Source: Candidatus Omnitrophota bacterium
GTDB taxonomy: Bacteria > Omnitrophota > Gorgyraeia > Zapsychrales > Zapsychraceae
Length of the DNA: 64,000 nucleotides
Direction of reading: 5' to 3'
Assembly (NCBI GenBank): GCA_050250375.1
Contig: JBFWOS010000003.1
Coordinates: 559,286 to 623,285 of the forward strand
Each line of letters starts with the position of its first letter. The first letter of the stretch is position 1. A program made the position numbers and the translations under genes. Below the pieces are notes generated by a model. The model had not been told where the DNA came from. It searched no databases and saw only the letters and a program-made list of their open reading frames with translations. Below, piece by piece: positions 13,060 through 60,300 of this stretch.

Positions 13060-13061
13060 CG

Positions 13062-21361: not shown

Positions 21362-24300
21362 CTAACGCCAGACGATTCTCAACTCACCGGCCGGAAAATT
21401 AAAAACAAGGACAGGTTCTCCGTTTTCATCAATAACAATCTCACTCTGCCCCAGGTGAATCCAGTCGAAAAACAAATTAGGGATGCGCATGAATCTGCGG
21501 TCATTTTCATCGAGATAACTTTCCTGATAAATCCGTTCTTCTTCCACCCAAACACCCGCTGGAATAAACCAGGCCGGCACTGGAGTGACCGGCTGCGGAA
21601 TAATAAAATGGTCCAACACCCGCAATTGTTCCATCAAAAGTTCTTCGTGACCGATAATGTTTAACGGAATGTTAATAGATTTCTCGATCGGGATGATTTT
21701 AAAATCGATATAAAGACGGCCCGGAACTTCTTCAACCGGTTCCGGCGGCAAATACTGGGCCAGGAATCTCAGACGTTCAAGGACAAATGGATAATCCGGC
21801 AGGCCGGTCAGAGGAACGTCAACAAATTTTTCGATCGGCGGCATCGTTTTATCAATCTTGACCACATCCGGATATCTTCTCAATGGTTCGGGTGGTAAAT
21901 ACTGTGCTAGCATCCGCATCCGATCTCTAATAAAATCGTAATCCGGTAATCCAATGAGCGGAATATCAACGGATTTTTCAATCAGTTCGACTTCTGCATC
22001 TATCTTAACCGGCAAAAGCATGGCATCCTCTTTACTTAAGACAACCCGATAAATTTCGTCCCCCAAGTGATCGGCCTTAAATTTTTTCCATTCCTGACGC
22101 TGGTCACGTCTAAACCGTTCCCGGATCTGCTGTATGTAACGGACATCCTGCTCTTTGATCTTTTGGGTATAGAACTCCCTCCACGCCGCGGTATTTTTAG
22201 ATGACGTATCATAAAGTTCAGGCAGACCCCGGGTCAAATACAATTCACGAGCCAGTTGCGCCTGTTCATCCTGTCCGTTTGTTCCATCTCCTAGATTTGA
22301 AGACGCTATAAAGACGGCACTGCGTCCAACCTGTTTTTTCGTCAAATCGCCGGGTTTACGTTCAAGATCGCTCAATGGAACATCCACTGATTTTTCAATC
22401 ACGTCCATGCTCTTGTCAATCCTGATGACATCCGGATATCTTCCAACGGGCTCCGGCGGTAAATACTGCGCCAACATTCTCATACGCTCCCGGATAAATT
22501 CATAATCCGGCAACGCGGTCAGCGGGATGTCAACCGATTTCTCAATAGGATCCATGCTCTTGTCAATCTTGACAACATCCGGGAATCTTCTCAATGGTTC
22601 CGGTGGGAAGAACTGTGCGAAAGCCTGCATTCGTTCTCTGATAAAATCATCAACCGGCAATCCGGTCAACGGGATATCAACAGTTTGTTCGATCCGTCCT
22701 ATCTCTTGATCAGCTCCGGTCTGATCAAACACAATCGCGTAGGCCGCATCCTCTATATGATCTTCTTTGAATTTCTGCCATTCGGGGCGAAGATCCCTCT
22801 TAAAACGTTCCCGTATTTGCCGGATAAACTGCATATCTCCTGACTTAATTTTTTCACTGTAATAATCCCGCCAGACCGCCATCTGCTTCGGCGTGGTTTT
22901 ATACATCTCGGGAAGCCCCCGCGTTAAATATAACTCACGAGCCAATTGTGCCTGACCCTCCGTTCCTTCGGAGTTGTCTCCCATCATGGACGAAGCCAAA
23001 AAGACCGCACTGCGCACGACCGGCCTCATCAATAAAGCACCCGGCTTACGTTCAATGTCACTTAAAAGAACATCGACTGACTTTTCGATCGGTTCAAGTA
23101 TTTTGTCGATCCTTATGACATCCGGATATCTTCCAACGGGCTCCGGCGGTAAATACTGCGCCAACATTCTCATACGCTCCCGGATAAATTCATAATCCGG
23201 CAACGCGGTCAGCGGGATGTCGAGCGACTTCTCGATCGGTTTCATGGTCTTGTCAATCCTAATCACATCCGGATATCTTCCCATGGGCTCCGGCGGTAAA
23301 TACTGAGCCAGCATTCTCATACGCTCCCGGACAAACTCATAATCCGGCAGTCCCGTCAACGGGATGTCGATGGATTTCTCAATCTTGACCAGATCTGTGT
23401 TGATCGACCCGGGATTAAATACAATTTCAAAAAATTTTTCGTTTAAATAGTCTTCTTTAAATTTCTGCCATTCCGGACGCAAATCCCGTTTAAAACGTTC
23501 ACGGATCTGCCGGATTATCTGGACGTCCCCGGCTTTAATCTTTTCGACATAATAATCCCGCCAGACCGCTGTCAGTTTCGGTGTACTTTCATATAACTCA
23601 GGAACACCCGTCGTCAAATACAGTTCGCGGGCCAACTGCGCCAGGTTTGATTGGCCAATGGTCTTGTCGCCGGCGCTGGATGAAGCAAAAAAGACCGCGC
23701 TGCGTACAACTGGCCTCTGCGCTAAATCTCCGGGCTTGCGTTCGATATCGCTTAATAAAACGTCAACGGATTTTTCGATCCGCTCCAGGCTCTTGTCAAC
23801 TTGAACCAGGTCCGGATATCGGCTGACTGGTTCCGGCGGCAAATATTGGGCCAGCATCCTCATACGCTCCAGGATAAATTCATAATCCGGCAGGGCTGTC
23901 AGCGGGATGTCGAGCGACTTCTCGATCGGTTTCATGGTCTTGTCAATCCTAATCACATCCGGATATCTTCCCATGGGCTCTGGCGGTAAATACTGAGCCA
24001 GCATTCTCATACGCTCCTGGACAAACTCATAATCCGGCAGGGCTGTCAGCGGGACGTCGATGAATTTTTCAATCCTGACTGTATCTTGAATGGCCTTCTC
24101 TTTATCAAAGACAGCCGCGTAACGCTCATCGTTCAAGCGGTCCTCTCCAAATTTCTTCCATTCAGGACGCGTGTCCCTTTTCAACCGTTCCCGCAATTGC
24201 CGGATAAACTCACGATCACCCGTCTTGACTCTTTCATCATAAAACTCACGCCACACTGCCTTTTGTTCCGGCATACTATCAAACATCTCCGGAATTCCCG

Positions 24301-33300: not shown

Positions 33301-36300
33301 CCTTGCCGCCAAACCCGAACAGGCCACCCATAGCCATCGCCATCATTGTGTGTGCATCACCGCTAGAATCTGTTCCACTGACTAACGCATATCCGAGAAC
33401 GACTGCCAGGATGATAAACGGCCCGAAGTGATCTCTGAAGACCACCCGTCCGATAAGATGGAACAACCGTTCAACTAGATAACCGACATACGCGGCCATG
33501 GCCGTCAAGAACCCGATCTTGTAAATGATTCTCCAGTCTGAGGTCACGTTGAAGTATTCAAAAATATCATCCCATGCCCCGTCAAAAATGATCTCTTTGA
33601 TTTCCGGAGAAACAGCTGCCCCAACAACCGCCGCCGTCAAAATAACGACAAACCAGACAAACCACCGCACCCACTGTTTGTAATCGCTGGCCGGGTTTCG
33701 GAAGATATTCTTCGGTCCTTCCACAAAGACCAGTGAATCATGGATCTTCTTGATGCGGATCGCGCGTTTGATCTTGCTGTATACGACCTTGACCGCGGCC
33801 AGACCGAGAAGACCAAGGACAACGGTTAATATGGAGACAGCACCTCTACCCTTAGTTCCCGATTCCCCAATCGTAACTTTAGTTTCTTTATAAGAACGGG
33901 TGCTGTCTCCAAGATCCTGAGGATCAAGTTGTGCAAGAACAGGGGCAATGCCATTAACTTCAGTCTCCGATTCCCCAATCGTAACTTTAGCTTCTCTTAA
34001 AGAACGGTCATTGCCCCTGTTGTTTATAGATTGGACAGCGTCATCACTTTCAGTCTCCGATTCCCCAATCGTAACTTCAGTTTCTGTTAATGAACGATGA
34101 ACGCTGTCCTCGATTGCTGTTTGGCCGCGGGCTTCATTCGTGGTCAGGATAACCAGCGCGAGAACGCCCAGGATAAACGGCATTAAATATCTCACGGCAC
34201 GCATGATGCGGTTTGCTGCCGGGACCGGTTTCGATTCCTTAATCATGATACCGGCGTCAACCAGAGATCGGGCGTGTTCAATCATGCCGCCGTTTCGTCT
34301 GGCGATAAAGTATTGTTTGATGTGTTCCAGCCCGCGTCCGGCGATATCATCAACGATGGCCGACATAAATCCGCTCCGGTTTCGGCTGCTGATGAAGTTG
34401 ACGACGCGTCTGGCGTTGACGAATGTCTCTTTATCCAGAAGGATCGCCGCGATACCCAGGGCGGCGGTTCCTTCAACCTTCATGCCGAAATGCTGCAGAA
34501 GGGCCATGGTGTAAATAGAATCCACATCCGCGACCCGGTAGGCGCCGTCGGCATATTCACGGAAGCGGTCAATCGCCGCCGGTTCAGGTGTGGCTGCGTT
34601 GCCGTCGGCCGGCATGTTGTTGGCGGCCGGGATTTGTTCCCTGATCGGAACGGCCGCGCCCTGCTGGATCGTGCGGAAACTCATGTCGACACGCGGTGTG
34701 GTGAACCCGTAGACATGCGCTTGCGGAATTCTGTTCTTGATTTGGAGTCCGGTTCCGGCAATCCATCCGGTTGATCCCATGGCCATGGTCACAACTAATT
34801 CACCTTCTTTTAGTTGTTCAATATTGATGGCCGGATCAGCGATGTAGCTTTGAACAACTTCTTCTCCGCCGGCGGCATAACCTGTACCAACCCATTCTTC
34901 AGCTGCTTTATCAAAATGACGGATCTGCATTTTGTGCCGCGGATCTTCATCCACCAGTTTCCAGACGACCTGTTCGGCTTCTTCATAACTTCCGTAATCG
35001 GCGTACAACCGTCCGCCGGCGTTTTTAATATTATTCTTTTTGTGTTCCAGGATATCGGTATCTGAATAAACGACTCCCTGCATGGTCTCAACCATTTCAA
35101 TAAATTGCGCCTGCGTTAAACCGCCCAGCGGCTCTCCGGTAAAGATGCCCGGATAATCCCGCTGCAATTCCAGGAACAGACGGACGAAATAAGCGTATCC
35201 GTTTTGCTGTAATTTTTCTTTGACCGCACGCACCGCGGTGACGGTGGCCAGGCCGTGGTTACCGGTAGAAACAGCAATGACTTCATACGGGATCTGTCCT
35301 TTGAGGACACGGACAAAGACTTCAACCGGCGCGCGGTTCTTGAATGATCCGGTACGGTATTGCCCCTGACCTTCGGCTTCGAAACCGTAAGATTCGTCTT
35401 TGAAGTCGATTCGGATCTCGCGGCCTTCTTCCCGTTCCAGAATGTCATTGACGAACCGGTTGATGCCTTCGATGGTTGTCAACGGCGTGGCTGACGGAAC
35501 AAGACCGAATTCACGCTGCAGCCGCAAGGCCGCGTGGACCTTTTCATCCGTAATGCCGCCGGCTTCTCTTCTGGCTTTAGCTTCGCGATGCGATAACGGC
35601 GTCAGAATAACCCGGTCAATACCGACCGGCAATCCTGTTGGGGTTGTTTGCGCGCGATGGATGCGACCTGACTTCTTCAATAACGCTTTAACGGAGAATA
35701 AAATTCTCTGGGCAGCAGCACGAACTCCAGTTCCCGATTCCCCAATCGTAACTTTAGCTTCATCTGTTAATGAACGGCTGCTGCCCATATCTGTTGTGTC
35801 GCGGTACGCGACAATAATCGGTGTTTCAAAATGTTGTAACGAAATTGTCTGCGGATAGCCTTGAATGGTTTCTCGCACTTCTACGGTGAACCCGAGGCTT
35901 CTTAGATGACTGATGAAATAATCTTGATATTCCGGTTTGTTTTCATCCTGATGAAGTCTGACAAACACGAGACTCTTAGACAATGGTCTGAAGTAACGAT
36001 CCAGATTCTCGACCAGGTCTTTGTTCGCGCTGCGGTTCGGCGCATTGATGCTCACAATATCAAATTGACGTCTGAACCGTTTATGTTCTGCGGCATCACT
36101 GATGCTGATATTTCTGTTTTCTGCGCGGCCTTTGCGGTCATGCTGACGTTTGTTTTGAATCAGATAAGAATGGTCAATGCCGGCGACTCGGGCGAATAAG
36201 CCTGTTTCTTTATTTTCCGCCACAATCCGGTCGGCGAATTCATTACGGGTACGGCCGGATCCCAGGTCAATCAACGATACCGGTTTTTGCGAACCAAAAT

Positions 36301-39300
36301 AATCCCGGATGATCGTATAGAATTCAGTTTCAGAGGCAGCGCGGTTGACTTCCGTTTCCGATTCCCCAATCGTAACTTTAGTTTTGTCTGTCGAAGATCG
36401 CGCGCTGCCTCTGATATCTTTCCATATGCGGATGAAAATCCATGTAAATGCGACGGCCGCCCCAATAATGATCAGGGCTAAGAACCTGGCCAGGAATGTT
36501 TCCACCGGACCGTCGTAAGACGAACCATACGCCGGAGCGGCCAGGCCTGCCGCTGCTGCAACCAACCCGGTTTTAACGAGAGTATTGGAGGCCATGCGTG
36601 TCACACCAGTTTCCGATTCCCCAATCGTAACTTTAGTTTCATCTGTTAATGAACGTACATGGCCTCCAAAATGAATTCGGGTGAAATGAACAGGGACGGC
36701 GTAATAACCTTCGGTTTCCGATTCCCCAATCGTAACTTTAGCTTCATTTGTTAAAGAAGTTACGCCGTCCCTATATTGGTCAAAGTGATTTAAGACAGTT
36801 CCCTGCGAATTGATCGGGGCAGCACGTGTCACATCAGTTTCCGATTCCCCAATCGTAACTTTATTCTTCTTCGCAAAAGAAACGGACACCGTTTCTTTTG
36901 CTTCGAAGGAATATTCCTGCCCTGCTCCGCCGTAGCGAAGACTGTTTAAGACAGGCTTCGCAGAGGCGAGCGAAGCAAAAATATTGGATTGATCCGCGCC
37001 GCGAAGCAGAATAGTTTCATCTGTTAATGAACGTGTGCCGTCCCGATATTGGTTGACCGCGGCCATGGTGCCGATGCTGATGACCGCGACCAGAGTTATA
37101 AATGCTGTCCGGCTGAAAACAGCGCGCTTGATCCATTGTTTGAATTGATAAAGCCGAGGATATGATTTTTTCTGATAAATGTTGATGTAAAGATCGATAT
37201 AGACTTCTTCGAACCTCTCCAGGCTGTCTTTAACGCTGTAGTGTTCCAGTCCGTATTCTTTTAACAATTCCAAAGTGATCGCCCGGGCGGATTCGGCCTG
37301 ATGGCCTTTCTGTTCATCTTCGTTGAATAGTTGTTTAAACAGTTCGAATGCCTTGGCCTGGTCTTCCATCGTGAAGATCTGACGGACAATCTTGCGCAAC
37401 AGGTTGTCGGCGGCTTCCTTGACGACCGGCTGGTTCTTTCGGGACATGTCGCGCTCGTACAGGTGGGTCAGCACATCGACGGATTTCTGATCGATCTGGC
37501 TGAGCCGGGCGAAGACTACTTCCCCGACAACGTTCGTCAACCCTTCGGCATCTTTTAATACCAGACGAACCACTTCATCTCTGATTTCATCATCGTAAGC
37601 CTTGAATTTGCGTTCAGATTCGTCTCTTCTTTGGTCAACCGCGATAATCGTTCCCAACAGCAGGATGATCCAGGCTGTATTGCGGTTATACGTTGTCAAC
37701 CCGCGCTGAATACTCAACAAATGTTCAAATGAATCTTCGATCAAATCTCTGGTGTCTCGATGTTCAATGTAATCCACATACAGCCACGGGATCAGTGAAC
37801 CGCCGGACATGGCCGCTTCTTTGTTATCCAGTGTCTGCAGAATTTCCCTGACGTCGGATCCTCGAATGACATAACTTTGATTTCTGGACACAAACCGTTC
37901 GATGGAATCTCTTGTTCTTAACAGGTAGACAAACACCGCTAACGAACCGTGCAGGGCGATTTCATCTTCCGGATGAAGGATGATTTCATCGATCTGCAGG
38001 ATGTTTTCCATGACCGTGCGGTCAAGCTGCTGCTCGAGGACATCCATAGCTTCCTGATATTCAGCTGTTTTTCCGATATAAAGCAGATGAATGATCAGGC
38101 CGCCGAGCGATTTCGCAAGGACTTGATGAAGCTGTTCGCTGTTTTGTTTGTAGGCACCGGCGATTCGGAACAGGTTATAGATCAATGTTCCATAGAATGG
38201 TTCTTCAGGAACCAGCATAACGCGCCAAATATCACGGTTTCCGGTGACCGGGTCCCTGGTGTCCAGAACACCCTCACGTAAGAACCGGGCGACGTCATCT
38301 TTAGTTGTATTCGGACTTTGCAGCAACAGCCGGTGGAACGGCGCGACTTCGAGGTTATGCTGCATAATAAATTCTTTGGTTTCATGAACACGGGCCAATA
38401 ATTCCGTTCCGCTGTCGTCGGTCATTTGCTTAAACATTTCAACCAGCTGTTCATCGGTATAAGCCAGATATTCAGCCGAAACAGGTCCGACAATCTGTTT
38501 AAACACGTCAATGAATGAATCCTTGTTTTCAGACTGTTGCGGATCGAGCCCAAGCAGGTTGAATAATTCTAAGCGTTCCTTCGAACTATAGGTGGCCACG
38601 TGGCTTCTGAATTCGAACAGCAATGATTCTCGGGCCTTTTGTTCATCCAGATAATCCTGGATCATCAGCGACCAGATACCGAATCGTACGGCCAGATAAA
38701 GCGTAACCTTCCAGCCGTCTTTTAACCGGACAGGGAAAGCGCCCTGACTTAGAGTATCCGATTCCCCAATCGTAACTTTAGTTTCTTCAAAAGAACGGGC
38801 GCTTTCCCTACCAGATTTATTCTCGAGTAATTTGTTTATGTTAATCACAATCATTGACTCACGGACATCAACGATATACTGACTTTGCGGTTCATTGACC
38901 AGTTTGACAAAATTATTTCTGCGGTTCGTGTTACCGAATAATTCATAGAACCGGGCGTACAGGAAGGCGTATGTATTGAGCGTATCCCGGGTGAATCTTA
39001 AAATCTTGGCTGATTCGATTCTGGATAGTTTTAAATGACCGATGTTTCCGGAATCAATGCCTGAATAACGCAGGCGGACCTGCTGGACGTCAAAATCATC
39101 GGCCAAATGATGAGTTTCAATCTTTGCCAGAAGCTCAGCGGCTTGTTTCTCAAATAAGCTGTCTTCTGTATGTGAACGGATCTCGGCGATAAATCGGGCC
39201 CGTATACCGTAATCCAGTTTCAGGACCTGCGTGGCCAGGGCTCTTGGCGTAATCAGCCAGCGGCGGATGCCTTTCAGGTCGCGTAGTGTTGATAACAGAT

Positions 39301-42300
39301 GAACAACCTCTACGTCAATCGCGTTATAGTTCCGTATATCGGTATATCGTGCAAAGAATTTGGTGATTCGTACAGCGGTATAAATCAATGCTGCGGCAGA
39401 AAGGACACCTGCCAGAACAGCTAACCAGAACCATGCGGTCGTTCCGGAAGCACCCATCAGGAACGGCGTTACGGCCAGGATGACGACAGCGCGCAAAATA
39501 CGGTCACGTCGTAAAGTTTTCGCCGCCGGAGGCGCGCGGGTTTCTTTCGTTGAGACCGTTTGGTTATGTTTCTTTCTGAGACTGAGGACCTGTTTGATCA
39601 ACACAACCGGAATGGTGACAATCACGGCTAACGCCGCCACGGCCAGCCACGGGCTGTGCTCAAATCCCGGTGTAGCGGACAACCCAAGAATCACGGCCAG
39701 GATGACGCTAAACGGTGATGTCATCAGTTTGGTTGACTCCGGCGCCTGCCAATCCCGGCTGGTGATCTTATCTTTGCGACGGATGGACATCAGTTTTTGT
39801 TCAAGGACATCCTGCAATTCTTTGCTTAAAGGTTTATCATCCTTAAGGAGAAGCAAGGTATCGTAAGAAACCTGTCCGATATCCGCATCCCCGATAACCT
39901 CTCCTGTCCCGGCGTGGACGTTGATGCCCAGTTGAGTAAGAACAGAACTCAATACATACAACCAACCAGAGAAGTTAACGGCGGAGATTTCAAGCAGTGT
40001 CCCTTCTTTGCCCTTGTATGTGGCCCCGGATAATTCGATCTTTGTCAGGATGTCCGTTTGCGGGACATTAAATGAGAGTTCAATATTCGCCTGACGTTCT
40101 TTAGTTTGTGTGGCGGTTTCACCCTCGGTGGCTGTTTCTCGTTTTTCTTGCAGGATATCTTCCGGCCGTACTTCTTCATTAATCATGCGTTCGATATCGC
40201 GTTTCATATCGGCCAATAAATCTTCCCAGGCCGTGCTGATGCCGGTGCGGTGTTCAACAAAGAAGTGGTCGATGACCAGACCGGAAGGTCCAAGTCCGAC
40301 TTTGTAGTTACGGCGGGCGAATCCATACGCCAGCAGCACGACAGAAATCTTGTTTAAAATACCCGGCCGGTCTTCATCCATCGGGTCAAACCGGATGAGG
40401 ATCTCTTCCGTCTTGCCTCTGACCGGCGAAGCACTGGACGGATTACTGACTGAAATGTTGATGCGGTCGTCGTGAGAACGGTCTTGCATGACCAAACGTC
40501 TGTCCTCTTCTACTTGTCTGGCCTGTGAGGCGCTCAGCGTTTGCACAACGTAATTCCTGTCACCGATGCGTTTCAGGTCAACATCGAAGACCGGATAGTA
40601 ATCTTTCAGACGCTGCGCGATACCCTGAGGCTGCAGAACGCTCATCTCGATCATGGTAAAGACCGTCAGCAGGGCCAGGCGGATCGGATCGTTTCCTATG
40701 ACTTCCTTGAAGAATTCGGCCATATCCGCCGGATTATCACCCTTACGGATGCGGGCGATCAATGCTTTTTGGTTTTCGATCAACCAGACGATCAGCCGTG
40801 TTTCGCGGCTGAACGGCAGCATGCCCATTCTGGCCAAAACGAAATACAATCGTCCGGAGTGGAACATTCCGTCAATACCGGCCACGATGTGGACCGGAAG
40901 GAACCGGCTCAGGCCGTTGATAATCCATTCCGGTGTGTGACCGTTGGTGTGCATCAACAGGGCCAGGCGCAAAGCCCGTCTCAGGTTATGACGGGTCAGA
41001 TAATCAATGCTTGGTTCCAGTTTGGCCTGCATGTCCGCAAAGACGGCCTGATCCATATCGTGGACCATTCTCGGTTCATGGAACATCAGCGCCTCACCGC
41101 GGACAAACGTTGCGACCGTGTAATGGTCTAACGTCAGATGATGCGGCGGATCAAGGTGACGGCGGTACATCAGTTCTCCGAAACCAAAAACAATCTTGGA
41201 CAGGATATTGTTGTTGGCCTTGTCCGCAAAATATCTTAATCTCCAGACGCCGGCGGTCAACGGCGCGTTGACTTTCATGTATTGGTGGACGAATCTGAAC
41301 CGCAGCAGCATCCATGTCCACCATCCGGCGGTTTCCATTTCGCGTTCGATTCGGTCGAAGATCCCGCCTCTTAACGCGGTCGGATAATTAACGGCAACGT
41401 TGGTCAATAAGTCGAACAATCGCGGCAGATAACTGCGGCGTTTCGGCTGTTGATAATCAATCGCCAGCGCGCGTTGGTTGTCGCGGTGCTGGAATCCGTC
41501 TTCCAGCATGAGATATGTTCCGGTTCTTCTGACAACCACAATGTCGTCCGGAAGGCTGGTGTCGATGGTTTCCGGTACGACCCTCAATTCATCGGCGCCT
41601 GACAGGATGAGCCTCAACCGTCTGAACGCGAACGTAAACAAGCGGTCTTGCGCCCTTCTTAAATCTTTCAGGAATTCCGGAATGATCTCTGCCGGTGTCC
41701 CGGTATAGCCCAGTTGGGCGGCGATCAGGGCGTATTGGTCAACCCTGACCCTGGTGCGGTTGGATTTGATGTTCATTTGCCCGACGACCGCGCGGACTTT
41801 CAGCAGCAGGATGTACGCGCGCCGGGCTTTTTCCAACAGGTCGCGGTCAAACACACCTTTATTCAACAGATAATTCCAAACCGCTGCATCCGGGATGAAT
41901 TCTTCAGAAGCCAAAGCATTGGTATCGGTGTGTTCGGCGATGAAGCCCGCCAATCCGATTGAATAGATTGTCTGCAGGTCTCTTAATGAACCGTTGCCTT
42001 CCTTCAGGTTAGGCTCTTTGGTATTCAAGCCTTCGCGGAAACCGTTCTTTTGGTATCGGATCTGCCATTCCAGACGTTTAAGCTTGGCAAAAACCAGCGG
42101 ATCAACATTGTAAGCCTGTTTCAGTCCGGCGAAGACTTCCATTCTCCAGCCGTTCCAGATTGAACGATCTCCGGCCACATAACGGGTCTCAAGGATAGAA
42201 CTCGCGATCTGGACCTGGGCGAGGTTTTCCGATTCCCAGCGGATGGTTGAAGCGTTCGGAACAAATTCAACCTGTTCATTGAATACTTCCGTAACCACCA

Positions 42301-45300
42301 TGCGGACGAACCGAAGTAATTTCAACTGGCGTTCAAATTCGGCCAATACGGCTTGTTTGTCCGCATCGGATTCATCGACAAACCGTTTGATCGCTTTAAA
42401 TTGATAATCAAAGTCATAAATGGCTTCGACCTTTTCCCGTTCCCCGGCCGGAACGAACTGCATGACTTTATCATGATTTTCTTCATACCCTTTCACTTCG
42501 ATTCTCAAGTCGAGGTCTGAACCCGGGACATATTCACGGCGGGCATAACTTCCGTGGGCCATGAAGGTCACATCCCCGTCATCGCCGAATCGTTCAACCG
42601 TATAACGGTTCAATTGAATGACGATATGGTCCAGCCGGCGGGTGGTCAGGTCAGTCTTAACCTGGATCGGCAGCCGCGCGTGGTCAACCCAGATATAGTT
42701 AAATTCATATTCCCATTGTTTCTTTAAAATCTGTGCTGTTTGTTTGATCGCCTCATTGTCATCGCCGATTGCACTTAAACGAATATCGAGCGTGGTTTTG
42801 ATTCTTTCCAACCGTTCGTTCAAACGCTCTTCCAATTCTTTGACCTGCGCGGCAACTTCTTCTTCGGTGAGATTAGACTGTTCGGATTCTTCGTCTTTCT
42901 TTTTACGGAACATGAACGGCCATAACATGGCGAGTACATACGGATTGTTGGTGGTGGAAGACATGACCGTTGACGGATCCGCGCCCATCAGATAAATGGT
43001 GACGATGGCCGCTAAGACAAACGCCATGATGATAAAACTGATAAAGCCGTTTTGTTTCAGCATTTTTGCCAACTTTTTAATGCGTGAATTTTGTTTTTTG
43101 TTGCTGCCTGCAAAGAAGTATTCATCCGTATCGATCTTTGCCTTGAGGTCGTTGTGTTCCTGTTTGGCCAGGTGGGCGATCACTAAACGGTAAATGATGA
43201 ACGACTGGATCAGATCATTCTTATCAAAGAAGTTTGTATTCAGAACGATTGTGTTTCGGTCAAAGTCGATGGCGAATAAATGTCCGTTTGAATAGATCGA
43301 TGAATCCGTCAAAATAAAGGTGATTTCGCGAGGCAGATCAAATTCCGGCGGTCCGCGCGTCATCAGATCCCCGATGACATCGTTGATTTTCGCCAGGAGG
43401 ATCTCTTCGCGTTGGCTGGCCGGTTCTGATGATGTTTTTTCGTAACGGTTTTCAACCAGCCTGACTTTAAATTCGACGCTCAGGTCTGCGACCACTTGAT
43501 CCATGGTTACGTCATCGGTTTTATGACCTTCTTCACCCTTAACGCCTCTCAGCCATTGTTTGACAAAGTCGAAGAACGATGTGAATACAATCACATTATG
43601 GTTGGCCTTTTCAATAATCTTGAATTCGAATCCAAACTTGTCCGCAAAGGCTTTATTTGTTTCAACAGGCGTGACCATGTCTTGCTGGCCGACAGTGACC
43701 AGGACTTTAATACCGTTTTGCCCGATATTTTCCGCCAAGGCAATTGATTCATCCGCGTCAATTTCCAGATGGCGGTATAACCACAATGTCTCAAATCGCT
43801 GACGGAAGCTGCGTTCAGCCACGTTGGCGTGTTCGATCAGTTTATTGTATAGGTATGAATTAACTCTTAGGAATTGGACCACTTTTCTGAATCCGAGTTC
43901 CCTGAAGAAGGCCTGCATACGGACCAGGGCTTTATTCGGCAGGATGTGAAGCATCATGACCCCCCATAAAATCGGACGGAACATGGAAATTTGTCTGTAC
44001 GGCAGTGACGCGAACACAACACTGTTGATATGGCTGATCGCATCGGAAAGAATGTTCTTGAACCGGAATGACTGCAGCGTGTAGCGGTTGGTCAAAAGCG
44101 CCAGCAGGATCCGTCCGCCGAACGAATGGGCCACGATATCCATTTTATGTGTCCTGACTGAACCGGTTGTTTCATAAACATTTAAATTCACTTGTTTAAG
44201 CAGGGATTTGATCTGCCGTTTCAGCCAGGAAGATTCCTCTTCTTCAACGATTTCAAATCCGTTTTGGGCAAAATGGTTGATGACCCAGGCCAGGAATACT
44301 GTTGACCGGGCGACAATGTGGTCAATCTCAAGAATATTTCTCAGGACAACTTTTTCCTGGATGGTTAATTCCTGACCGCCGATGCTTCCGGTTTCCAGCA
44401 GTCCGCGGATAATCTTGTCGGATCTCCAGTGCTGGATAATGACGATAGTGCGCTGCGGATACAGCCTCTTCAATTCTTCCATGTTAAACGTGAGCGTATC
44501 AACGACACCATGAAGGAACAGGATCGGGCTGCCGCCGGCCTTATGGACCTGGAAGGCGTACGGCACATCGATGGTGTTGTCTGAATATGAATTGTATTGT
44601 TCTTCCTGGGTTGGCACATCTTCCACATAAGTATCCGTATGATGCCGTCCGTTACCATTGCGTCTCAGTCGGGATAAGCGTGAACCGTTACCTTTATAAG
44701 CCTCGATGACTTTTGTCAGGGCTGCCCTGGCGCCGGCCGGTCCGTGTTCCGGCAAGACAATAACGTCTTGCGGCATGCCGGCGTAAATCTTCGGTCCGAC
44801 CATAACGCGGGTGGCTTTCGGCAGGGCCGCGAACATCGGATGATCCAGTTCGCTGTCTCCGATAACCAGAATGTCTTCTTCATTAATTCGAAGATGATCC
44901 AGCAGATCGCGTACCGCGCGTCCTTTATCGGCCCGGGATACGTGCAGAGCGACGGATGACACCAGAACGTTCAGGCTGCTGAACCTTTCGTCAGCGGCCA
45001 GACGGCGACGGATGCTATCGGCCAAATGTGTGCGGAATTCAACTGTTGTATTTTCCAGCCACAACTTCAGATCAAGGGTCTGTCCTTCGAACATGACACG
45101 GTCCAGAGGCATATCATCCGGCAGAGTTCTGAGCCGCTGTCTGGCCAGATTATATTCGTAGCCGATAATGCCCATAACTTCTTCGATTTCATCATCGGTA
45201 GAAGCCAGGATATCCAGATAAATCGGAATATCGTAATCGATCTGGCCTTGACGGTTGAACCGGTAACCAATTCCGCCGTTGGCGGTATACATATATTGCA

Positions 45301-51300: not shown

Positions 51301-54300
51301 GGTCCGCATTGTCGCCGGTCGGGAATTCGCTTGCGAAGGCATACGGATCGGCCTTGATCCTGACCACTTTGTCCCGCCCGATAATGCGGAATTTGTAAAG
51401 GGCGCCTTCGGTGACCCGCGGCACATATATCGACCAGACGCCGGTTGATGGATCAAATCTCATGCGGCCGCCTCTGTGCTTCCAGCCGTTGAAATCACCG
51501 ATGACAGAAACGGAGCGCGCATTCGGCGCCCAGACGGCGAAGTAGGTCCCGTAGACGGTATGTTCCGTCTTGACCAGGTGAGCGCCGAGCTTATCATAAA
51601 TCTGGCTATGCGCGCCTTGCTGAACGAATAACAGTTTATCGAGGTCTCCGAACTGCAGGCCTTGCATAATCTTTAGAACGCGGGCTGATTCTTCATCCAG
51701 CTGAATGTGACCTTGTTCGACGGCCGCAGATATTTCGCTGACGGCTTCCGGACGGCTGGCGTACGTCAGAAGGCTGTCCTGAATATAATTATTCAGATAA
51801 TGTTCTTCACGGGCGCTGTTTTGTTCATGCGTCAGATCAAATTCAGCCAGGGCGCCGACTTCATGGATCAAACTGGCCGCCATCTGATTGACGGTCAGGT
51901 ATCCGAGTTCTTCATATTCCGCCGCGTTGGACAGGACGATGTATTCCTCACCGTCATAAACGTAAACAGCAGCGAGGATTCCCGTCACCGGACCGGCGCG
52001 AAGGAGTCCGGCACGGGCCATGGTTCTCAGGCGCTGGGCCATGGCTTTATAACCGTTTGCGCGCAGGTATCGATGGGCGGCGATTACGGCCGGATGATTG
52101 ATGGCCACCATTTCCAGCCGTTTGATATCTTTATCTCGTGATTGTTCAGTGGCGGTTTTAAGGAATGCGAACGCCTCTGGTGTCAACGCTTCAGCCGTTA
52201 CTCTCCATGTCCAGTTGTTTTCAACCGTACCGGGTTTATTCATCCGGGCTTCTTCATCCAGGCCGAGAATATCTTGTAACGGAACGATGGCGAGACGTGA
52301 TTTTGAATCGACAGCCATCTGGACAAAACGTTCATGAATATCTTCTTCTATATTTTCTTCCGCGAGATGTTCCGTTATTTCACGTTTCTGTTCAGCAGTA
52401 GCTTCGCGGGTATACCAGCCTACGGTGGTATTATTATCATGAGTACCGGTGTAGACCACAGAATTTTCAACGTGATTGTCCGGATGGTAACGATGATCTC
52501 CTTCAAACCCGAACTGAAGAACGTTCATGCCTGACAATTCAAATTGTTTAAGCAGGACCGTCACGTCCTCTGTAATAATCCCCAGGTCTTCAGCGATGAA
52601 CGGCAGCGATGGGAATTGTTCGCTCAGATGGCTGAAAAAGTCGGCGCCCGGCCCAGGCACCCATTCGCCAGCCAGGGCGTTTTCGGCCTTGGCCGGGATG
52701 GACCAGTAGCCGGCAAATCCGCGGAAATGATCCAGGCGGACCAGGTCGAAATAATTCAACTGCTGCTGCAGACGCATGGTCCACCAGTCGTAGTTATTTT
52801 CCTTGAGCGCATCCCAAAGGTAAACCGGGTTGCCCCAAACCTGGCCAGTGGCACTGAAGGCATCTGCCGGCGCGCCGGCGACATGAAGCGGCTGGTTGTC
52901 TTTGCCCAGATCGAAATATTCTCGGTGGGCCCAGACATCGGCGCTGTCATGGCTGACATAGATCGGCGCGTCTCCGATAAACCGGACGCCTTTCTCAGCG
53001 GCGTACGCTTTCAAGGCCCGGAATTGTTTGTAGAGCATAAACTGCACAAACATAATCTCTTCAACAGCGGCCTTATGTTGTTCCCGGTAATTGGCCAGGA
53101 TCGTTTCGTTTCTGTCTCTTAATGAATCGGTCCATTCATACCAGGCTTGCCCGTTGTTATTTTCTTTCAGGACCATGAACAACGCGTAATCTTGTAACCA
53201 ATAATTATTGTTGAACATAAAGAGTTCAAATTCACTGTTGCCGTTCTTGGCCTTGAAGCGTTCATAGGCCAGTTTGAGCAGGCCTCCCTTGAAGGCAGCA
53301 ACGGTGTTGTAATCGACCTTGGTTTCATCCGTTGTTTCAAAGGCGGCCGCTTCTTCGGCGGTCAGCAATCCTTCGGCGACCAATTTCTCGATGCTGATCA
53401 TCAGAGGATTCAAGGCGAAGGCTGAATCGCTCAGGTACGGTGAATTTAATGTTGAAACCGCGGTCGGCGTCAACGGCAGCATCTGCCAGTAACGCTGCTT
53501 GGCTCCGGCGAGAAGATCGACAAACGCGTAAGCAGCCGGTCCGAAATCACCGATGCCGTGGCGTGAAGGCAATGAGGTTACGGACAGCAGGACCCCGCTT
53601 TCTCTCGGCTGGATGATCCGTTCGACTTCGAAACGGACTGATTGTTGATCCGGCATTTCTTCTCCCGACACCGGCCGCGCAGGATCTTTGGCGGCGACGG
53701 TTTCGAATGTTCTGACCAGATATTCGAACGGACGAAGCGTGATTGTTTCTTGAGCGGTAAACGCGCTTTGCTGGCCGTTCTCAACATTGGTCCACACGCC
53801 CTGGGCATTACTTTGGCCAGAATTCCACTCTTCCGCCCAGAGGTGAAGGGTGAATTGACGGGTTTCACCGGAATAGTTGGCGATGACCAGCGCCTGTTCC
53901 TGGGCGAGGCTGCGTTGATAGGCGATCACGCCCTTCGGCAAGTCTCCGGTATGAACCGCATTTGTGTCACCTTTGCGCCATAACGCTGATTTCGTTTTAT
54001 TTAACCAGGTATCATAAAATTCCTTCTGTTCTTGATCATACGGCTCGGCTTCATGGTTTTGGGTAACATAGGTTGCGTTCGGTTTTTCGTTTGAACGGCC
54101 GCGGCGCTGGCCGGCGTTGATCATCACCATACCCGGCATGGTCATCATCAGGACAGCGGCTGCTCTTTGTTGTTCACGGTTCAATATCCTGGCGACGCGC
54201 TCGGACGGATCATCATGGTTTTCCAAGAAATGGACGGTGCGCGTTAAATATTCATTTGATGTGCGTTGCCGGTTGGTCAGGTAATCTCTTAATTCTTCAA

Positions 54301-57300
54301 CCGGGAAACGCTGTTCGACCAGGATGTCGAACACATGTTTGTCGTAGGTAAAATGAATGCCCAATCGCTGCAATGCCCCTTCGTGCTGGGCATAACCTTC
54401 GCCGATCAGGATGGCGTTGTTGTATGCACCTAAGAATTCATGCAGGAATCCAGGGATAAATTCTTCTGTTAGGATCTCATTTCCGCCTAACGGTTGTAAA
54501 TCACGGTTGATATGTTCTTTTAACAGCAGATGCGCCATATCGATTCTGGCACCGCCGCCGTTGGTGATATCCAGGATGTATTGCATTTTCGCGGCCATCT
54601 GGGCTCTTAATGCCGGGTTCGACCAGTCTAACTGGGCGGTATCGATCCATGAACCGGAGAACCCTTCTTGTCCGTGCAGAATGGCTTTCGGCCCATTTGC
54701 TGTTTGGACCATAAAGTAACGATTCGTGTATTTCTTGACATCTTCGCGGTTCTTCAAATATTCACTCAGGGTCGTGACCGGTTCATTCAATTGAGCCGCG
54801 TCGCGTGAAATGAACCATTCCGGATGGGCGATGGTCCATGGTGAATCGGCGGCCATGTGGTTCGGAACAAAGTCGACGACCACTTTCAGGCCGGCGGCGT
54901 TGGCGCGTTTGACAAATTTGCGGAACGATCTCTCCGTACCAAATTCTTCGTCGATCGTGTAATCTTTAATGCTGTACGCTGACCCGACCCGTTTTGGATC
55001 CCACATCTTGTTGAAGTCTGTTGTAAATTGTCCTCTCTTCCAGATACCCATCATCCAGATCACATTAAATCCGTCGGCTCTCATCGTTCTGAGGGTTTTA
55101 TTGTCAATTTCATCGAACCGGCGGCCTTTTTCGCGGGTATGCCATAAGAATAAATGGGCGCCTTGTGTTCTGATTTCTTCATCGAGATCAGACCCTGGTT
55201 GCGTAGCGGCCGGGAATTCCCCGCTAACCTTTCGTTCAGCCAGTTCAAAAATTCTGCGGTTATAGTCTGCGTGGACTTTGGCCGCCGCGATAATCGCCTC
55301 TTCCTTGGCCAGCCAGGCGATTTGCGCATAATCCATATCCGGCAATTGCCGTCTCAATGTTTCCATCGCCCGTTGCAGTGTCTGCGCATAAACCTTATCG
55401 ATATCAACAGCCAGCTGGAATAAGATCATTTGTTGTTCGACAGATGGTACAACCCACTTTCTCAGGCTCGGCACATAAACCCGTTTGTGTTTGGCCACAA
55501 ACAAGTTTGGCGGTGTGCGTTTGAAATGAACGGTGCGTTCCGCTTCTTCATCGATCGGGGCGACATTGATCGCGTGGAATTTAACGGCGGTGTAATCGGC
55601 ATTGACCAATCCCGCGCTGTAGATGACAGATGGTGGTGCGTTGATCTGGTTGAGTTTACCGGATGCGGTCTGATCAACGATCACGTAGAGATTATGTTGA
55701 CGCTGCAATCCTGAGGCCGGCACCTTCGGCGTCACATCACCTTCAAGCGCGGCGGCCATAATACCAGCCTTCTTCTCGCCGTTGGCCATGAAGAATGTGT
55801 TGCGGGCTTCAAAGATATCGGCCAAGCCCATGGTATAGGCGTATGGAACCCGTCGGATGTCTGCGTAGTCACTGATGTTGGAATCAATCGTGCTTTGGGT
55901 CAAGCGGATTTGTCTTATTCTTGAGCTGAATTTATTATCGGCTGAAGGTTCATTGAAGGCCAAATGTCCGTTAGCACCGATGCCTAACATCACGATGTCC
56001 GCTCCGCCCATCTGTCTCAACGTTTGCGTATATCGTCTCAGATAAACCGGAAGAATGAAGGCTGTGTAGACCGGGCTTAAGATGTATTTGGTCACAATAT
56101 ACGGGATAGATTTATATTGGTACGGATCATATTTCACATAATCTGCGACCAGATGGATATTTTCTTGCGGGATCGCGACTCTGGAGAACAGGTTCTCGTT
56201 CAAGAAATAAGCGAATGACGCTTGGTGATCCCTGGTGAGACCTCTGTATTCATCCAGATGGAACGCGTTGATGCGTGACCATTCAATTCCTTCTATCCTG
56301 GCCAGTTCGTGCAGGAATTGTTTCATCGTGTTGCCGGTGGCAAAGATAATATTGATCGTTTCTTTAACCTTTAATAATTCTTTTATCTTGGCCGCGACTT
56401 GTCCGGCGGCGCCAGGGGCGAATTGGTCAGGAGCGTACACACTTACGTTATTCGTCTTCGCGGTTTGTTCTCCGGCCATTTGTTCTTTATCCGCATGGCG
56501 AACGGCTTTGAATGCGGCTTTGGCCAGCCAGACAAACGGACCGACGAAACCGATGAAGACCAGATACCATTTATTTCTTCTTAATTGGGCATCTTTAATG
56601 AAGAACCCTTTCTTGTTCACGGCCGATGAGTAGAAGATGTTGAAGAATTGAGTAGAAATACCGTCCAAAGCCACTGCAACCGCAGATAACGCTGGATGTT
56701 GAATCATTAAGCCGCGCAGGATCGAATAGAAGCGGGTCATCCAGAACGCTTCAAATTGTTTTTCGTGGGCCTTAAGCGCTTCTTCTCTTAATTGTTCAAC
56801 ATTGCCACGGATCAGTTCAACCAGCTTGCTATAACCAAACGATCTTAAGCGAACCATCGCCCCAATGCCGACAATCTTCAGGGCAGAGATGAAGGCTGTT
56901 TCTAAATCAGCTGGCTGGTCACCAAACAGACCCGGCATCACTTGGCCGGCCGCCCAGACAATGATAGTAATAGCCAAAGTACCAAGTGCGACGAAACGGG
57001 TTGTCATAAAGAAATTCCTGATTTTGAATGTCTTGAAGAAATTGACCGTGCGGGCTTCCACCATACTTCCAACGACATAGGTCAGGCCGAGGAAGGCGCT
57101 GATCGACAAGATCAGATATCCGAGCATCACACCTTTTGGCGCGATCACGGTGAAGTAGGCCAAACTCAAGAGGCCCATCGCGAGGCCTAACGGGAAGGCG
57201 AGCACGACTTGTTTCTTGATGATGCCGTGGCCACTGATCCACTGTCCGGTGAGGTCGGTGGCGGCCATAAAGATACCGAAGACGATGATATTGGCCACCG

Positions 57301-60300
57301 GAACGGCCACCACGCTGGTCAACAACGCGAACAGATATCCGTAGGTCAACAAGGCCAGGCCGGAGATCGCCGCCACGCTGATCAACGCCTTCACCAGGAC
57401 GCCGTTTCTCGGACGGGAAACTGGCCGTTCGTTCGTTGTTTTACGGACCGGCTCATCCGGCATCATGGCCAGCGGGGCCAATCCGTTCTCAATGACACCG
57501 GCGCGGCCGATGAACAGCGGTTCGATGAACCTGAATGAATCGGCCGGAACGATTTTGTTAACAGCCAGATGCTCCAGGAACAGCGCGGCGTTGAATACAT
57601 GCATGGTCGGTTCGCCGCTTAGATTGGATACTTGGTCGGCCGGGATCGCTTCGCGCATCTTCTCGATTTCCTGATCGGTATCGATAAATATGCGATGGCG
57701 CCGTCCGCGGGCGATCTCATAGGTGATCCAGGCCGGATCAGCCACGGCGCTGTAAACCTTAGGCTGTTTCAGGCCGTTCAATTCTTCTTTCTTAAGGATC
57801 AGGTAAGCGATATCAAATGAATAACGTAATAATTTTTGTTTGTCTTCGTTGCTAAAGCTTGACTTCAACACGTTTTGTTCGACCCTCTTGTTCAACCGTT
57901 TTAATTCTTTACGGTTAAGATCTCTGTCTTCCTTGATGAAGCTCAAAATTTGAGCCGGAACAACCCAGGCAAATCCGACTTCCGGAACAAAATTCCATTT
58001 AAACGCGGTCTTGACCGGAAGTTTGTAGGCAAAATGGTAGAACAACAGGATCGGTGAACGGATCAACCCGACCACAAACGATGAAACAAGATATGAAATA
58101 ACTGCGGCTGCCGCTGTAAAGAAGATGTTTCCGCCGGATAAGCTGAAATAGACGTAAGCCGTTGATGTTGAAACGCCCAGGATCTTGACCGTTTCGGTCA
58201 CGACTTTTGAGGCCAACAATGTATAGAACATGGCCCAGTAGCCGTTGATTTGTTTTTGGGTCAGACGGCCGCTCGCCAGGGCGCGGTGTGAAGCGAATAT
58301 CAGCAGTTTACGCAGGCTGTTGACTTTTACGGTCACGGACTTCTGGGCTGCCCGGCTGCCGGCGCGGGCCATCAGGAACATACCCCATACGGCCAGGAAC
58401 AGGACGAATTCAGCGATCCCCTGTCCGAATTTGTTTAAGGTGGAGGCAACGCCGCGAACTTCAGTTTCCGATTCCCCAATCGTTTTAACTTTAGTTTCAT
58501 GTGTTAATGAACGGGCGCTGCCTCCAACAGGTTGTATTTCTGAAATTATTTCTTGAGAGTCTACAGGGGTGATGCCGACAACTTCGGTTTCCGATTCCCC
58601 AATCGTTTTAACTTTAGTTTCATTTGTTAATGAACGGGCATCACCCCTGTTAGATTTTGTGGAGACAGCACCTTCAACTTTTGCTCCCGATTCCCCAATC
58701 GTAACTTTAGTTTCTGTTAATGAACGGGTGCTGTCTCCAATATGTTGTGTTCCTGTTTGAACTTCTGGTGAAATTACAGGGGTGATGCCGGCATCTTCAG
58801 TTTTCGATTCCCCAATCGTTTTAACTTTAGTTTCATTTGTTAATGAACGGGCATCACCCCTGTTAGATTTTGCGGAGACAGCACCCTGGTCTTCAGTTTC
58901 CGATTCCCCAATCGTAACTTTAGTTTCTGTGAACGAACGACGGGCGCTGTCTCCGACATGAGCTGCATCTCCTTGGAGATACATATCGGTCAATATTCTT
59001 AATTGGTCTGATGTTAATTGCGGATAGTTTGGTTCAATGTCGGCCTGAGGATTGACGCTGAGTCTTTCGGCCGTGAGAGCTTTTTGTCTGTCCTGGGCGG
59101 CGATTTGTGCGTTGATTTGTTCTGACACATCGCGGCCTTCTTCTTCCAGGCGGATCATATCGACGAAGAATGGAATCATGATGACTGGGTCATAGGCTTC
59201 CCAGCTGCCGTTGTTTTCACCGGTACGGCTGTATCTGAATCCGACATGGATATGGTCTTCAATCGGCCGGCCGTTTAAGCGGTCTGCGGCATTACCGGTG
59301 ACGCCTGAATGACCAACGACTTGGCCGAGTTCGACCTGTTCTTGCTGTTTGACATCGGATTTTGTTAAATGACTGAACTCGACGCGGATCCAGATACCGG
59401 CGACTTTGCGGTCAACAAAGACGACCAGCCCGTCTCTGCTTGTCTCGACTTTAAGGATTTGACCTTCCCAAGGCGTTCTGACCGGGGTATTGCGCGGCGT
59501 CAAGAAATCAACCCCACGATGATAATCGCTGTTTAATCTGAACGCGCCGAAATAATTGTACGGACGGATCAACCGTTTGATGACATCTTCAGGTTTTTCC
59601 ACCGCTTGAACGTCGGTTGCATCCATATTCGCCTGCTCAACGGTGTTAACTTGACCGACGGCCCGAAGGGAAAGAACGAGCAGAACGATAAACAACACGG
59701 CCGCGAGTATCACAGAGACCAGGCGTCTTGTCGGTGTTCCGGCTTTTCGGGCTGTTTGTTCCGCGGCGAACAGTTCAGTGACGGTGCGGTCAATCGGACG
59801 GTTATAGTCAAGCGCGCCAAGATTGATCACGATAAACAGTGTTTGATATTTTTTACCCTGATGTTCTTCGTCAATCGTAATGAATCGGTAAGCGTCCCGG
59901 CCTTCTTTGGCTAAAAGATCAAGCACTCTGGTCTGGAATTCCATGCCGCGGGAAGACACATTTCGATTAATGACGGTGTCGATCCCTTTGTTAAACAACC
60001 ACTGCAGCGTTATGCGGTAGGCTTCAACGGAATATTGTTCACGGATCAATTTTGATGAGCTGGTGGAAACGACGGCCGGTTTGCTCTTGCCCCTGAAGAA
60101 CACCCCGATATTCAAGTCGCCGGTTGTCTGGTTTTCACGATCACGTAAATCAAGCAGGATATGTGTCTCTTCCCGTGAGGTGCCGCGGACGTTGAGTCGG
60201 GCGATCTTGCCATCGAGGACGGTTCCGGCGAACATTTCTTCATAAACGGTGTCGGATTTTTGCTGATCGGTCAGGTCTAGATCGACCAATACGACCAGGC

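Follow-up and report, generated by a model that had tools for sequence, protein, structure and literature searches.

Why should one bacterial gene carry fourteen translated copies of the same short sequence, and why should the centre of these copies never exchange one synonymous codon for another? The question is raised by a stretch of 64,000 nucleotides from Candidatus Omnitrophota bacterium (GenBank assembly GCA_050250375.1, contig JBFWOS010000003.1, positions 559,286 to 623,285 of the forward strand), here called the window and numbered from its first letter. A single open reading frame (ORF) on its minus strand, 21362-63976, of 14,204 codons and 42.6 kb, harbours all fourteen copies, which encode the peptide (G-D-S-A)RSLTxETKVTIGESETE(..G-A-V-S). 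Each copy is an 80-90-nt structured nucleic-acid module, located in frame in the coding strand of this giant ORF. The decisive feature is a covarying closing stem, and it is very probably the fold that maintenance or selection acts on, and not the peptide, which is largely a by-product. The constraint is on base pairing and on specific unpaired nucleotides, and the element is conserved between two Omnitrophota genomes.

The 26-mer TTCCGATTCCCCAATCGTAACTTTAG at the centre of the element occurs 11 times in the window at no more than 2 mismatches, on one strand only and never in dinucleotide shuffles, and a looser search of both strands of the window found nothing further. Three more copies bear a 3-nt AAA insertion (KVKTIGES), which brings the total to 14 TIGES-encoding copies, all on the minus strand and in the same frame. 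The preliminary description of this stretch had listed fourteen copies in three clusters, and this is borne out: the TIGES sites lie at residues 1688, 1720, 1759, 1791 and 1832 (five copies), at 8402, 9041, 9082, 9117, 9202 and 9410 (six copies) and at 9969, 9999 and 10035 (three copies), with spacings between copies of 90 nt to 20 kb. Equally correct was its claim of an invariant core with the same codons throughout, as a 21-nt stretch, AAA GTT ACG ATT GGG GAA TCG, is identical in 14 of 14 copies even though these codons are minor in the remainder of the ORF (GGG 14%, TCG 10%, ACG 25%, GTT 28%, ATT 33%). The chance of one copy using exactly the core codons is 10^-3.8, and that of thirteen further copies doing so 10^-49. 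In the immediate flanks, conserved residues vary synonymously (Ser TCA/TCT/TCG, Val GTT/GTG/GTC, Gly GGT/GGC), whereas in the core they never do. Read in six frames the core has stops in four, and all 20 known copies (14 in the window and 6 in a second genome, contig L019, introduced below) are stop-free in the frame of their host.

The ends of each copy are mutually reverse-complementary, so that the whole copy is an imperfect palindrome of 80-90 nt. A unit of roughly 45 nt surrounded by unrelated DNA, as had been proposed, is wrong on both counts, since every copy is flanked by an inverted repeat with arms of 10-15 nt, spaced 52-60 nt apart, which extends the unit to its full length. These arms vary between copies yet match within each, and there are at least 12 distinct arm sequences, each self-complementary. 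The fold is a three-way junction, made up of a closing stem (P1), a small hairpin (P2) and an interrupted hairpin (P3). P1 measures 10-15 bp and is variable in sequence with its complementarity kept; P2 is a hairpin of 3-5 bp, of the type GUUC-AUUAACA-GAA; and P3 is invariant in sequence, consisting of ACU/AGU, a 2x2 loop AA/GA, AGUU/AACU, a bulged A (R) opposite GA, and CGAUU-GGGG-AAUCG. The flanks of the peptide, G-D-S-A and G-A-V-S, are there because the P1 arms are read as codons (GGA GAC AGC GCC and GGC GCT GTC TCC). Additional hairpins can be inserted in frame at loop or junction sites, as with a 43-nt GC hairpin in the P3 internal loop of two L019 copies and with 153 nt at the P2/P3 junction of element 7 in the window.

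Folded in segments of 126 nt, 13 of the 14 copies adopt the same minimum-energy architecture at -35 to -44 kcal/mol. Eight exact elements were also folded alone. Seven of them are 80-86 nt long and reach -25.3 to -36.6 kcal/mol; the eighth, a 122-nt copy with an inserted hairpin, reaches -58.2 kcal/mol. For seven of these eight the z-scores range from -4.65 to -5.6 and their stability was matched by 0 of 200 shuffles, while the weakest fold, at positions 236-315 of L019, has -25.3 kcal/mol, a z-score of -2.66 and 1 of 200 shuffles as stable. The central 71 nt folded alone, that is, with the outer stem excluded, yield non-significant z-scores, and this accounts for the unstructured look of the core by itself. 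The preliminary description had proposed a secondary-structure prediction around the element as a check, and for single full copies this gives z-scores of -2.7 to -5.6.

In an alignment of 16 copies (A1; 13 from the window and 3 from the second genome), RNAalifold predicts a P1 of 13 bp, and in 12 of these 13 pairs both sides have changed with pairing kept. Imposing the structure on the alignment, P1 is paired in 96% of cases; double changes were counted in 53 cells versus 16.4 +/- 3.7 in shuffles (0 of 500), and the covariation score is 0.385 versus 0.186. Sliding the partners by 1-3 columns lowers the pairing from 93-95% to 26-47%. Nearly all exchanges in P1 are from G-C to A-U or from C-G to U-A, and the changes in P3 are limited to a few from U-A to U.G. 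Compensatory changes beyond both the shuffled and the slid controls, which is the general test for a structured cis-acting RNA motif, are thus seen for P1 only.

A constraint on the protein would leave its mark on the codon positions, and none is apparent. Mean column entropies for the first, second and third positions are 0.84, 1.02 and 0.95 bits in the P1 arms and 0.375, 0.288 and 0.315 bits in the core, so the third-position excess expected under protein constraint is absent. An exhaustive HMMER search with residues 1201-2400 retrieved one motif-bearing protein, P0022 (MBZ0167564.1), a partial '6-phosphogluconolactonase' from the Candidatus Omnitrophica/Omnitrophota metagenome-assembled genome GCA_019912205.1. 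Its 1,285-nt contig, L019, contains 6 copies, the first cut by the contig end, with the peptide SLTxTEVAIGESETG (core TEVAIGES) and the nucleotide core GAAACTGAAGTTGCGATTGGGGAATCGGAAACTG. The consensus sequences of the window and L019 differ at two places, AAA to GAA and ACG to GCG, both nonsynonymous (K to E and T to A) and both at positions unpaired in the model, namely in the 2x2 loop and at the bulge; none of the synonymous positions has changed. The P1 arms of L019 are specific to each copy and complementary within it, as in GCAAGGACGGCGC/GCGCCGCCCTTGC and GGCGAGGGCAAC/GTTGCCCTCGCC.

As after the first array of the window, the L019 array is followed by a 6-phosphogluconolactonase-like domain, in which 95 of 155 aligned residues are identical between the two genomes. 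Among the identical residues with degenerate codons, 43 of 93 have the same codon, and synonymous sites are near-saturated, which places the nucleotide conservation of the element above the neutral expectation between these two genomes and, for the two species compared, above that of the surrounding sequence. The view that selection on the protein would not suffice, and that the nucleic acid itself is constrained, is supported by the flat variability over codon positions and by a second species that keeps the nucleotides while amino acids change. Recurrent gene conversion, which the preliminary description had offered as well, acts within a genome and cannot explain a core kept across two species, nor compensatory changes in 12 of 13 stem pairs. 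The two L019 copies with a GC-rich insert of 43 nt in the internal loop of P3 lie at 104-225 and 560-701; the inserted hairpin, CCCGGCCCGCCACGCAGGCGACGCCTCCGTGCCGGGGCGGG, is identical in both, is in frame and encodes PARHAGDASVPGRA.

A covariance model (R1), built from the alignment and run with filters off, recovers exactly 14 strong matches from the window, with scores of 43-95 bits; every one lies within the ORF and on the minus strand. Besides these it reports the 5' half of element 7 and weak reverse-strand echoes of the palindromes. The refuting condition set by the preliminary description, a common genomic repeat unrelated to this gene, was applied to the 21 kb of the window that lie beyond the giant ORF, and no copy was found there. 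None was found either in L018, the 16-kb contig of a relative (Logan SRR23004073; 76-84% nucleotide identity) that reaches 600 codons into the giant gene and ends before any element, in 12 kb of another giant-protein fragment, in 78 kb around other large homologues, or in two unrelated loci; these negatives span L018, L029-L034, L001 and L004, about 200 kb of other loci in all. L029-L034 are the contigs encoding the best matches from the representative library. One of them, L029 (JGI Ga0247389_10003168, 2-12130), encodes the giant-protein fragment P0025 of 4,042 residues with a region homologous to the methyltransferase-like region of the window ORF; its linkers are different, being of a recurrent SSSP[AV] type and overlapping small GC hairpins, and the covariance model does not match them.

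Sequence collections gave no further carriers. A degenerate DNA pattern for K-V-T-I-G-E-S had no matches in GTDB genome contigs or in JGI metagenome contigs, a search too strict for the E-V-A variant and made in collections that do not hold the source genome. The 19-mer AAGTTRCGATTGGGGAATC, shared by both species, has 8 metagenome matches and 1 viral match, which I regard as chance, as they come without P1, P2 or the remaining core. Protein searches with the first array, with residues 9201-10100 and with an 18-unit profile returned no motif matches, though this is weak, as the profile missed even the six-copy P0022, and a scan of genome contigs with the MalQ segment returned only enzymes of 32-48% identity from unrelated phyla. 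Looking up MutL and MutS by exact match led to no recorded contig. Rfam 15 at gathering thresholds reports a tRNA-Pro only for the window, and a scan of 33700-38900 by E-value (up to 10) weak chance matches only. In mutL, at 20725-20748 on the plus strand, ACGTTCATTAACAGAGGAAAA (RSLTEEN in frame) shares 15 nt with the P2 part; I take this for a chance match, since at this conserved site of MutL the relative reads RSLLGEN.

On which molecule the fold acts is weakly indicated by the non-canonical pairs: within well-defined helices the sense strand has 7 G.U versus 1 A.C, which favours RNA over single-stranded DNA. To judge by these sequences, the chances are about even that the element is a functional cis-acting RNA on the 42.6-kb mRNA. 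The ribosome has to read through it. P1 would be a generic clamp that holds the invariant P3, and P2 with it, in place for a factor acting in trans, which may be a protein or a second RNA; in P3 the loop of GGGG and the bulge of GA, and in P2 the loop, look like surfaces for recognition. Situated in linker and juxta-membrane regions, often in arrays of 3-5, the elements could exert local control over the fate of the message there, by slowing elongation at boundaries of modules and transmembrane (TM) helices and/or by labelling places where the mRNA is processed or protected. Arranged in tandem, the elements would be multivalent, and structures of this stability, of which five fall within 515 nt, should hold up elongation. 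The preliminary description had suggested signals for RNA processing, ribosome pausing or segment boundaries, all of which are possible, and I do not rank pausing, processing and the binding of a factor among themselves.

A bolder version, which I consider improbable, is that of a punctuation system for giant genes, a structured RNA unit kept across Omnitrophota lineages where the 42.6-kb message or its translation is segmented. This could proceed by self-cleavage or factor-guided cleavage of the transcript, or by programmed pausing or hand-off of ribosomes at module and TM boundaries. How the messages of Omnitrophota giant genes, which measure from 10,000 to some 147,000 codons, are made and translated, and how their products enter the membrane or are possibly cut, is an open problem, and the authors describing the giant proteins state their cleavage points to be unknown (bioRxiv 10.1101/2023.11.21.568195). 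The element is a concrete candidate signal here, with a compact covarying fold, in frame at linker and juxta-membrane sites, and with nucleotides kept in two species while the peptide drifts. Punctuation, if true, would answer whether giant transcripts and proteins work whole or in pieces. Apart from this, the element is a clear case of protein-coding sequence selected as structure, a dual constraint rarely so clean in bacteria, and the covariance model is a direct means to survey the several hundred available Omnitrophota genomes. A search for literature linking Omnitrophota with RNA motifs found none, and the two papers on their giant genes contain no word of hairpins, palindromes or RNA elements.

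Several points weigh against a cis-acting RNA. P2 is weak and ambiguous in its register, and P3 has no covariation evidence of its own because it is invariant. Counted over all modelled pairs, the sense strand has 13 G.U versus 14 A.C and does not tell RNA from single-stranded DNA, and the common sense orientation of the copies is no evidence for a role in RNA because it is forced by maintenance of the ORF. Compensatory changes in a DNA palindrome could in principle arise without selection, by hairpin-templated (quasi-palindrome) correction. No candidate trans-acting factor was identified, and the carriers are two genomes only, of small phylogenetic depth. Placement near TM helices applies to 4 of about 6 independent sites, so few that it is suggestive and not significant. 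Lastly, a 213-nt tandem unit of two elements at 86% identity, and a seventh element that is split and decaying, look like the dynamics of an ordinary repeat.

These dynamics would be expected if the element were a selfish in-frame palindromic repeat, similar to the Rickettsia palindromic elements (RPEs), that spreads by duplication or transposition, survives in tolerant linkers and has its palindrome kept by hairpin-templated repair. This is the main rival and in my view rather unlikely, although the element is palindromic and in frame, encodes a hydrophilic peptide rich in S, T, E and G in linkers, and is of a kind documented in Rickettsia (PMC10969869). Duplication in tandem and in blocks enlarges its arrays, one of the copies has been split and is in decay, and with stops in four of six frames only in-frame sense copies could persist. 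A mobile repeat is difficult to reconcile with 0 copies outside the giant ORF, either in the 21 kb of flanking genes or in the 16 kb of the relative, and with the lack of any transposase or recombinase encoded in the window. Inspection of the aligned copies, the only approach taken here, showed no conserved terminal inverted repeats or target-site duplications, and the arms differ between copies. Templated palindrome repair also cannot explain why the unpaired GGGG, AUUAACA and GA bulge are kept across species at synonymous sites, and an arm spacing of 52-60 nt looks long for such correction. Were the element selfish after all, the RPE phenomenon would reach a new phylum and suggest a route for the modular growth of giant genes.

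Decidedly improbable, in my view, is a DNA-level hairpin or recombination site, a hotspot or recognition site for rearrangement at which modules would be deleted, duplicated or exchanged without breaking the ORF, driving the modular growth of giant genes. The copies are direct, in one frame and at module borders (the methyltransferase-like region lies between elements 10 and 11, a PALP domain between 11 and 12), a two-element block has been copied over 25 kb, and the architecture differs between the two species exactly beside the array, where L019 leads directly into the 6-phosphogluconolactonase-like domain and the window has about 630 extra TM-rich residues. A role driven by homology, however, needs the shared core only, and neither a covarying stem nor an invariant loop; the window encodes no recombinase, integrase or HUH enzyme, and the weak G.U bias of the sense strand points away from DNA. 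Least credible of all, and very improbable indeed, is that the peptide RSLTxETKVTIGESETE matters in a polyprotein, as a site for cleavage by a protease, for sorting or for docking, its nucleotide identity being due to recent duplication or gene conversion. It does lie between domains and beside TM helices in a class of giant proteins suspected to be cut up (bioRxiv 10.1101/2023.11.21.568195), and the ORF contains an M23 peptidase domain (residues 1485-1583) and has an Rce1-like membrane protease gene nearby (11593-13131). Against this stand the flat variation over codon positions, the second species that changes K to E and T to A yet keeps the synonymous positions, and the four-fold sites that vary in the flanks and never in the core. 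No gene conversion inside one genome could keep two species at one sequence, and the G-D-S-A and G-A-V-S flanks are accounted for by stem complementarity.

Among known systems, the closest category is the in-frame palindromic repeat. RPEs (PMC10969869) likewise are short, hairpin-forming, multicopy and in frame in coding genes, where they are translated into a conserved, tolerated peptide; a hairpin-forming repeat and its in-frame insertion in an ORF (20 of 20 copies stop-free) are found here too, whereas terminal inverted repeats of conserved sequence, target-site duplications (by inspection) and a transposase (in the window) are not. RPEs measure about 150 bp and are scattered over many unrelated genes and intergenic DNA, while the known copies of the element lie in a single giant gene and in the gene corresponding to it in a second metagenome-assembled genome. 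Unlike RPEs it varies its stem with compensatory changes, is invariant in its centre rather than its ends, and keeps its core between species at synonymous sites. No sequence relationship was seen, and the two are set apart by features and not by sequence comparison. Within this category the element stands out in four ways: its known copies keep to a giant gene, its stem covaries, its centre does not vary, and its nucleotides are conserved across species. The chance that it represents a new type of signal specific to giant genes is modest.

REPs can protect upstream mRNA from 3' exonucleases and stall ribosomes. The element shares with REP/BIME, ERIC and BOX repeats stable, repeated stem-loops present in transcripts (PMC10969869). 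Those repeats lie outside genes or at gene ends and are untranslated, in contrast to an element inside an ORF with a three-way junction and an invariant hairpin. The RNase III sites of phage T7 and the tRNA punctuation model of mitochondria offer a further parallel, being recurrent structured units between functional modules of a very long polycistronic RNA. These units lie between ORFs, where cleavage yields translatable mRNAs, whereas cleavage at the element would yield non-stop fragments, and P1 with its 10-15 bp is below the typical length of an RNase III substrate. Three-way-junction ribozymes such as the hammerhead and twister-sister resemble the element in a size of about 80 nt, a variable closing stem, conserved junction and loop nucleotides and optional inserted stems. 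It matches none of the families of Rfam 15, even at E-values up to 10, and the hammerhead core CUGANGA/GAAA is absent, the junction being CUAAAGU in 13 of 14 window copies.

Other identities were rejected as well. A CRISPR array does not agree with the irregular spacing given above, with copies inside an ORF, or with the lack of cas genes in the window; and a shufflon or invertase system, integron attC sites and dif sites do not agree with the lack of a recombinase in the window, with sites that are all direct, or with conservation of the centre rather than the ends. An intrinsic terminator lacks the T run after the 3' arm in every copy, a TadA-type editing hairpin is contradicted by UACG lying outside an anticodon-like loop, and intron excision by element lengths that are not multiples of three. 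Translational bypass was rejected, as the copies are stop-free and hence read, and so were a sigma-70 promoter and a slippery frameshift site; these judgements were made by eye.

The individual elements, all on the minus strand, are given here with their P1 arms and their covariance-model scores. The first array starts with element 1 (58873-58955; P1 CGGAGACAGCGCCC / GGGTGCTGTCTCCG with one G.U on the sense strand, 85.9 bits), followed by element 2 (58777-58862; P1 ACAGGGGTGATGCC / GGCATCACCCCTGT, 93.0 bits), which is an AAA-insertion variant (KVKTIGES), and element 3 (58660-58739; P1 TGGAGACAGCACC / GGTGCTGTCTCCA, 91.9 bits). Elements 4 (58564-58649; 93.4 bits) and 5 (58441-58526; 94.6 bits) are AAA-insertion variants too; the former has the P1 of element 2 and lies within the 213-nt tandem duplication, and the latter has P1 TGGAGGCAGCGCC / GGCGTTGCCTCCA with one G.U and folds at -35.9 kcal/mol (z -5.6). 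On the side of element 5, this five-element array ends about 20 residues ahead of a TM helix.

Element 6 (38731-38810; P1 AGGGAAAGCGCCC / GGGCGCTTTCCCT, 82.9 bits, z -4.9) is isolated, and its P2 is altered to UUCUU-UUG-AAGAA with the hairpin retained. Element 7 (36815-37045; 43.3 and 13.2 bits) is split, with the 5' arm and P2 at 36967-37045 and the remainder, P3 with the 3' arm, at 36815-36891. Between these halves, at the P2/P3 junction, sits the 153-nt in-frame insertion, itself strongly folded, and the whole region of 251 nt has -99.3 kcal/mol and a z-score of -6.4. The P1 of this element is partly decayed, with 13 of 17 positions complementary in hand-aligned arms and about 6 outer pairs retained in the minimum-energy fold. 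A truncated relic had been noted near 37015; the sequence is indeed there, and it is no separate relic, being the 5' half of the copy at 36815-36891. Inside the 153-nt insertion, at 36866-36908 on the minus strand, lies a perfect 13-bp hairpin (GCAAAAGAAACGG-tgt-CCGTTTCTTTTGC) that is translated in frame and thus represents a second kind of in-frame hairpin in the giant gene.

Element 8 (36691-36773; P1 AGGGACGGCGTAA / TTACGCCGTCCCT, 92.6 bits, z -4.65) and element 9 (36586-36668; P1 GGAGGCCATG / CATGGCCTCC, 91.8 bits), the latter with a hydrophobic segment after it, are followed by element 10 (36331-36413; P1 CAGAGGCAGCGCG / CGCGCTGCCTCTG, 88.3 bits, z -5.2), located 18 residues past the TM helix 9166-9184 and directly ahead of the methyltransferase-like region. 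Between that region and the PALP domain lies element 11 (35707-35789; P1 TGGGCAGCAGC / GCTGCTGCCCA, 90.6 bits, z -5.2). Elements 12 (34030-34110; P1 GGACAGCGTT / GACGCTGTCC, 68.2 bits), 13 (33940-34019; P1 AACAGGGGCAATG / CATTGCCCCTGTT, 91.9 bits) and 14 (33832-33911; 91.0 bits, z -5.1) fill the loop between the TM helices 9927-9945 and 10047-10065. Element 14 has the same P1, TGGAGACAGCACC / GGTGCTGTCTCCA, as element 3, and its 3' arm encodes the start of the second of these helices. A two-element block is common to arrays 25 kb apart (residues 1704-1772 versus 9985-10048, 62% amino acid identity), and the copies appear to multiply by segmental duplication, both tandem and in blocks, inside the gene.

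The host ORF is truly coding, as its last 600 codons compared with L018 have a ratio of nonsynonymous to synonymous substitutions (dN/dS) of 0.083 at a dS of about 1.6. It encodes M23 peptidase, 6-phosphogluconolactonase-like, alpha-amylase, MalQ (Pfam E 7e-169), GlgB, GlgA, HAD, alpha/beta hydrolase, GlnD/E-type nucleotidyltransferase and PALP domains, together with the methyltransferase-like region, which by eye looks like an S-adenosylmethionine methyltransferase (DLGSG motif) and has no Pfam match. About 27 TM helices are present in the protein; AlphaFold, run without alignment on residues 9185-9435, reached a pLDDT of 35, too low to be informative. Secretion and pilus genes are the usual neighbours of the Omnitrophota giant proteins called 'multi-enzyme metabolic clusters' (bioRxiv 10.64898/2026.06.07.730766). 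The host gene has the features of this class as defined there, with at least 10,000 residues, many distinct Pfam families including PF08323/PF00534, TM helices, secretion and pilus genes nearby and an Omnitrophota genome; a secretin gene and a pilin gene are present near it in the window, and neighbouring proteins are exact matches to NCBI entries of a Candidatus Omnitrophota metagenome-assembled genome.

Some further observations concern the giant protein and its neighbourhood. Seemingly complete housekeeping enzymes of sugar and glycogen metabolism (6-phosphogluconolactonase-like, alpha-amylase, MalQ, GlgB and GlgA) are fused in its one reading frame, and only 2 cysteines are found among its 14,204 residues. 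The gene at 11593-13131 (minus strand), 8 kb from the giant gene, encodes a membrane-embedded Rce1/CAAX-type protease fused to TPR repeats, a possible candidate for the enzyme that would process the giant protein, should that protein be cut. Tandem repeats that have diverged make up the last sixth of the giant protein (residues 11865-14135; 21720-28300, minus strand); at the DNA level their periods are 690 nt and 738-786 nt, and the units share 60-90% nucleotide identity. L018 stops within this region, probably because the repeats break assembly. In the Pfam-dark N-terminal part, residues 111-241 and 1070-1200 (about 63254-63646 and 60377-60769) form an internal duplication of about 130 residues with 51% identity.

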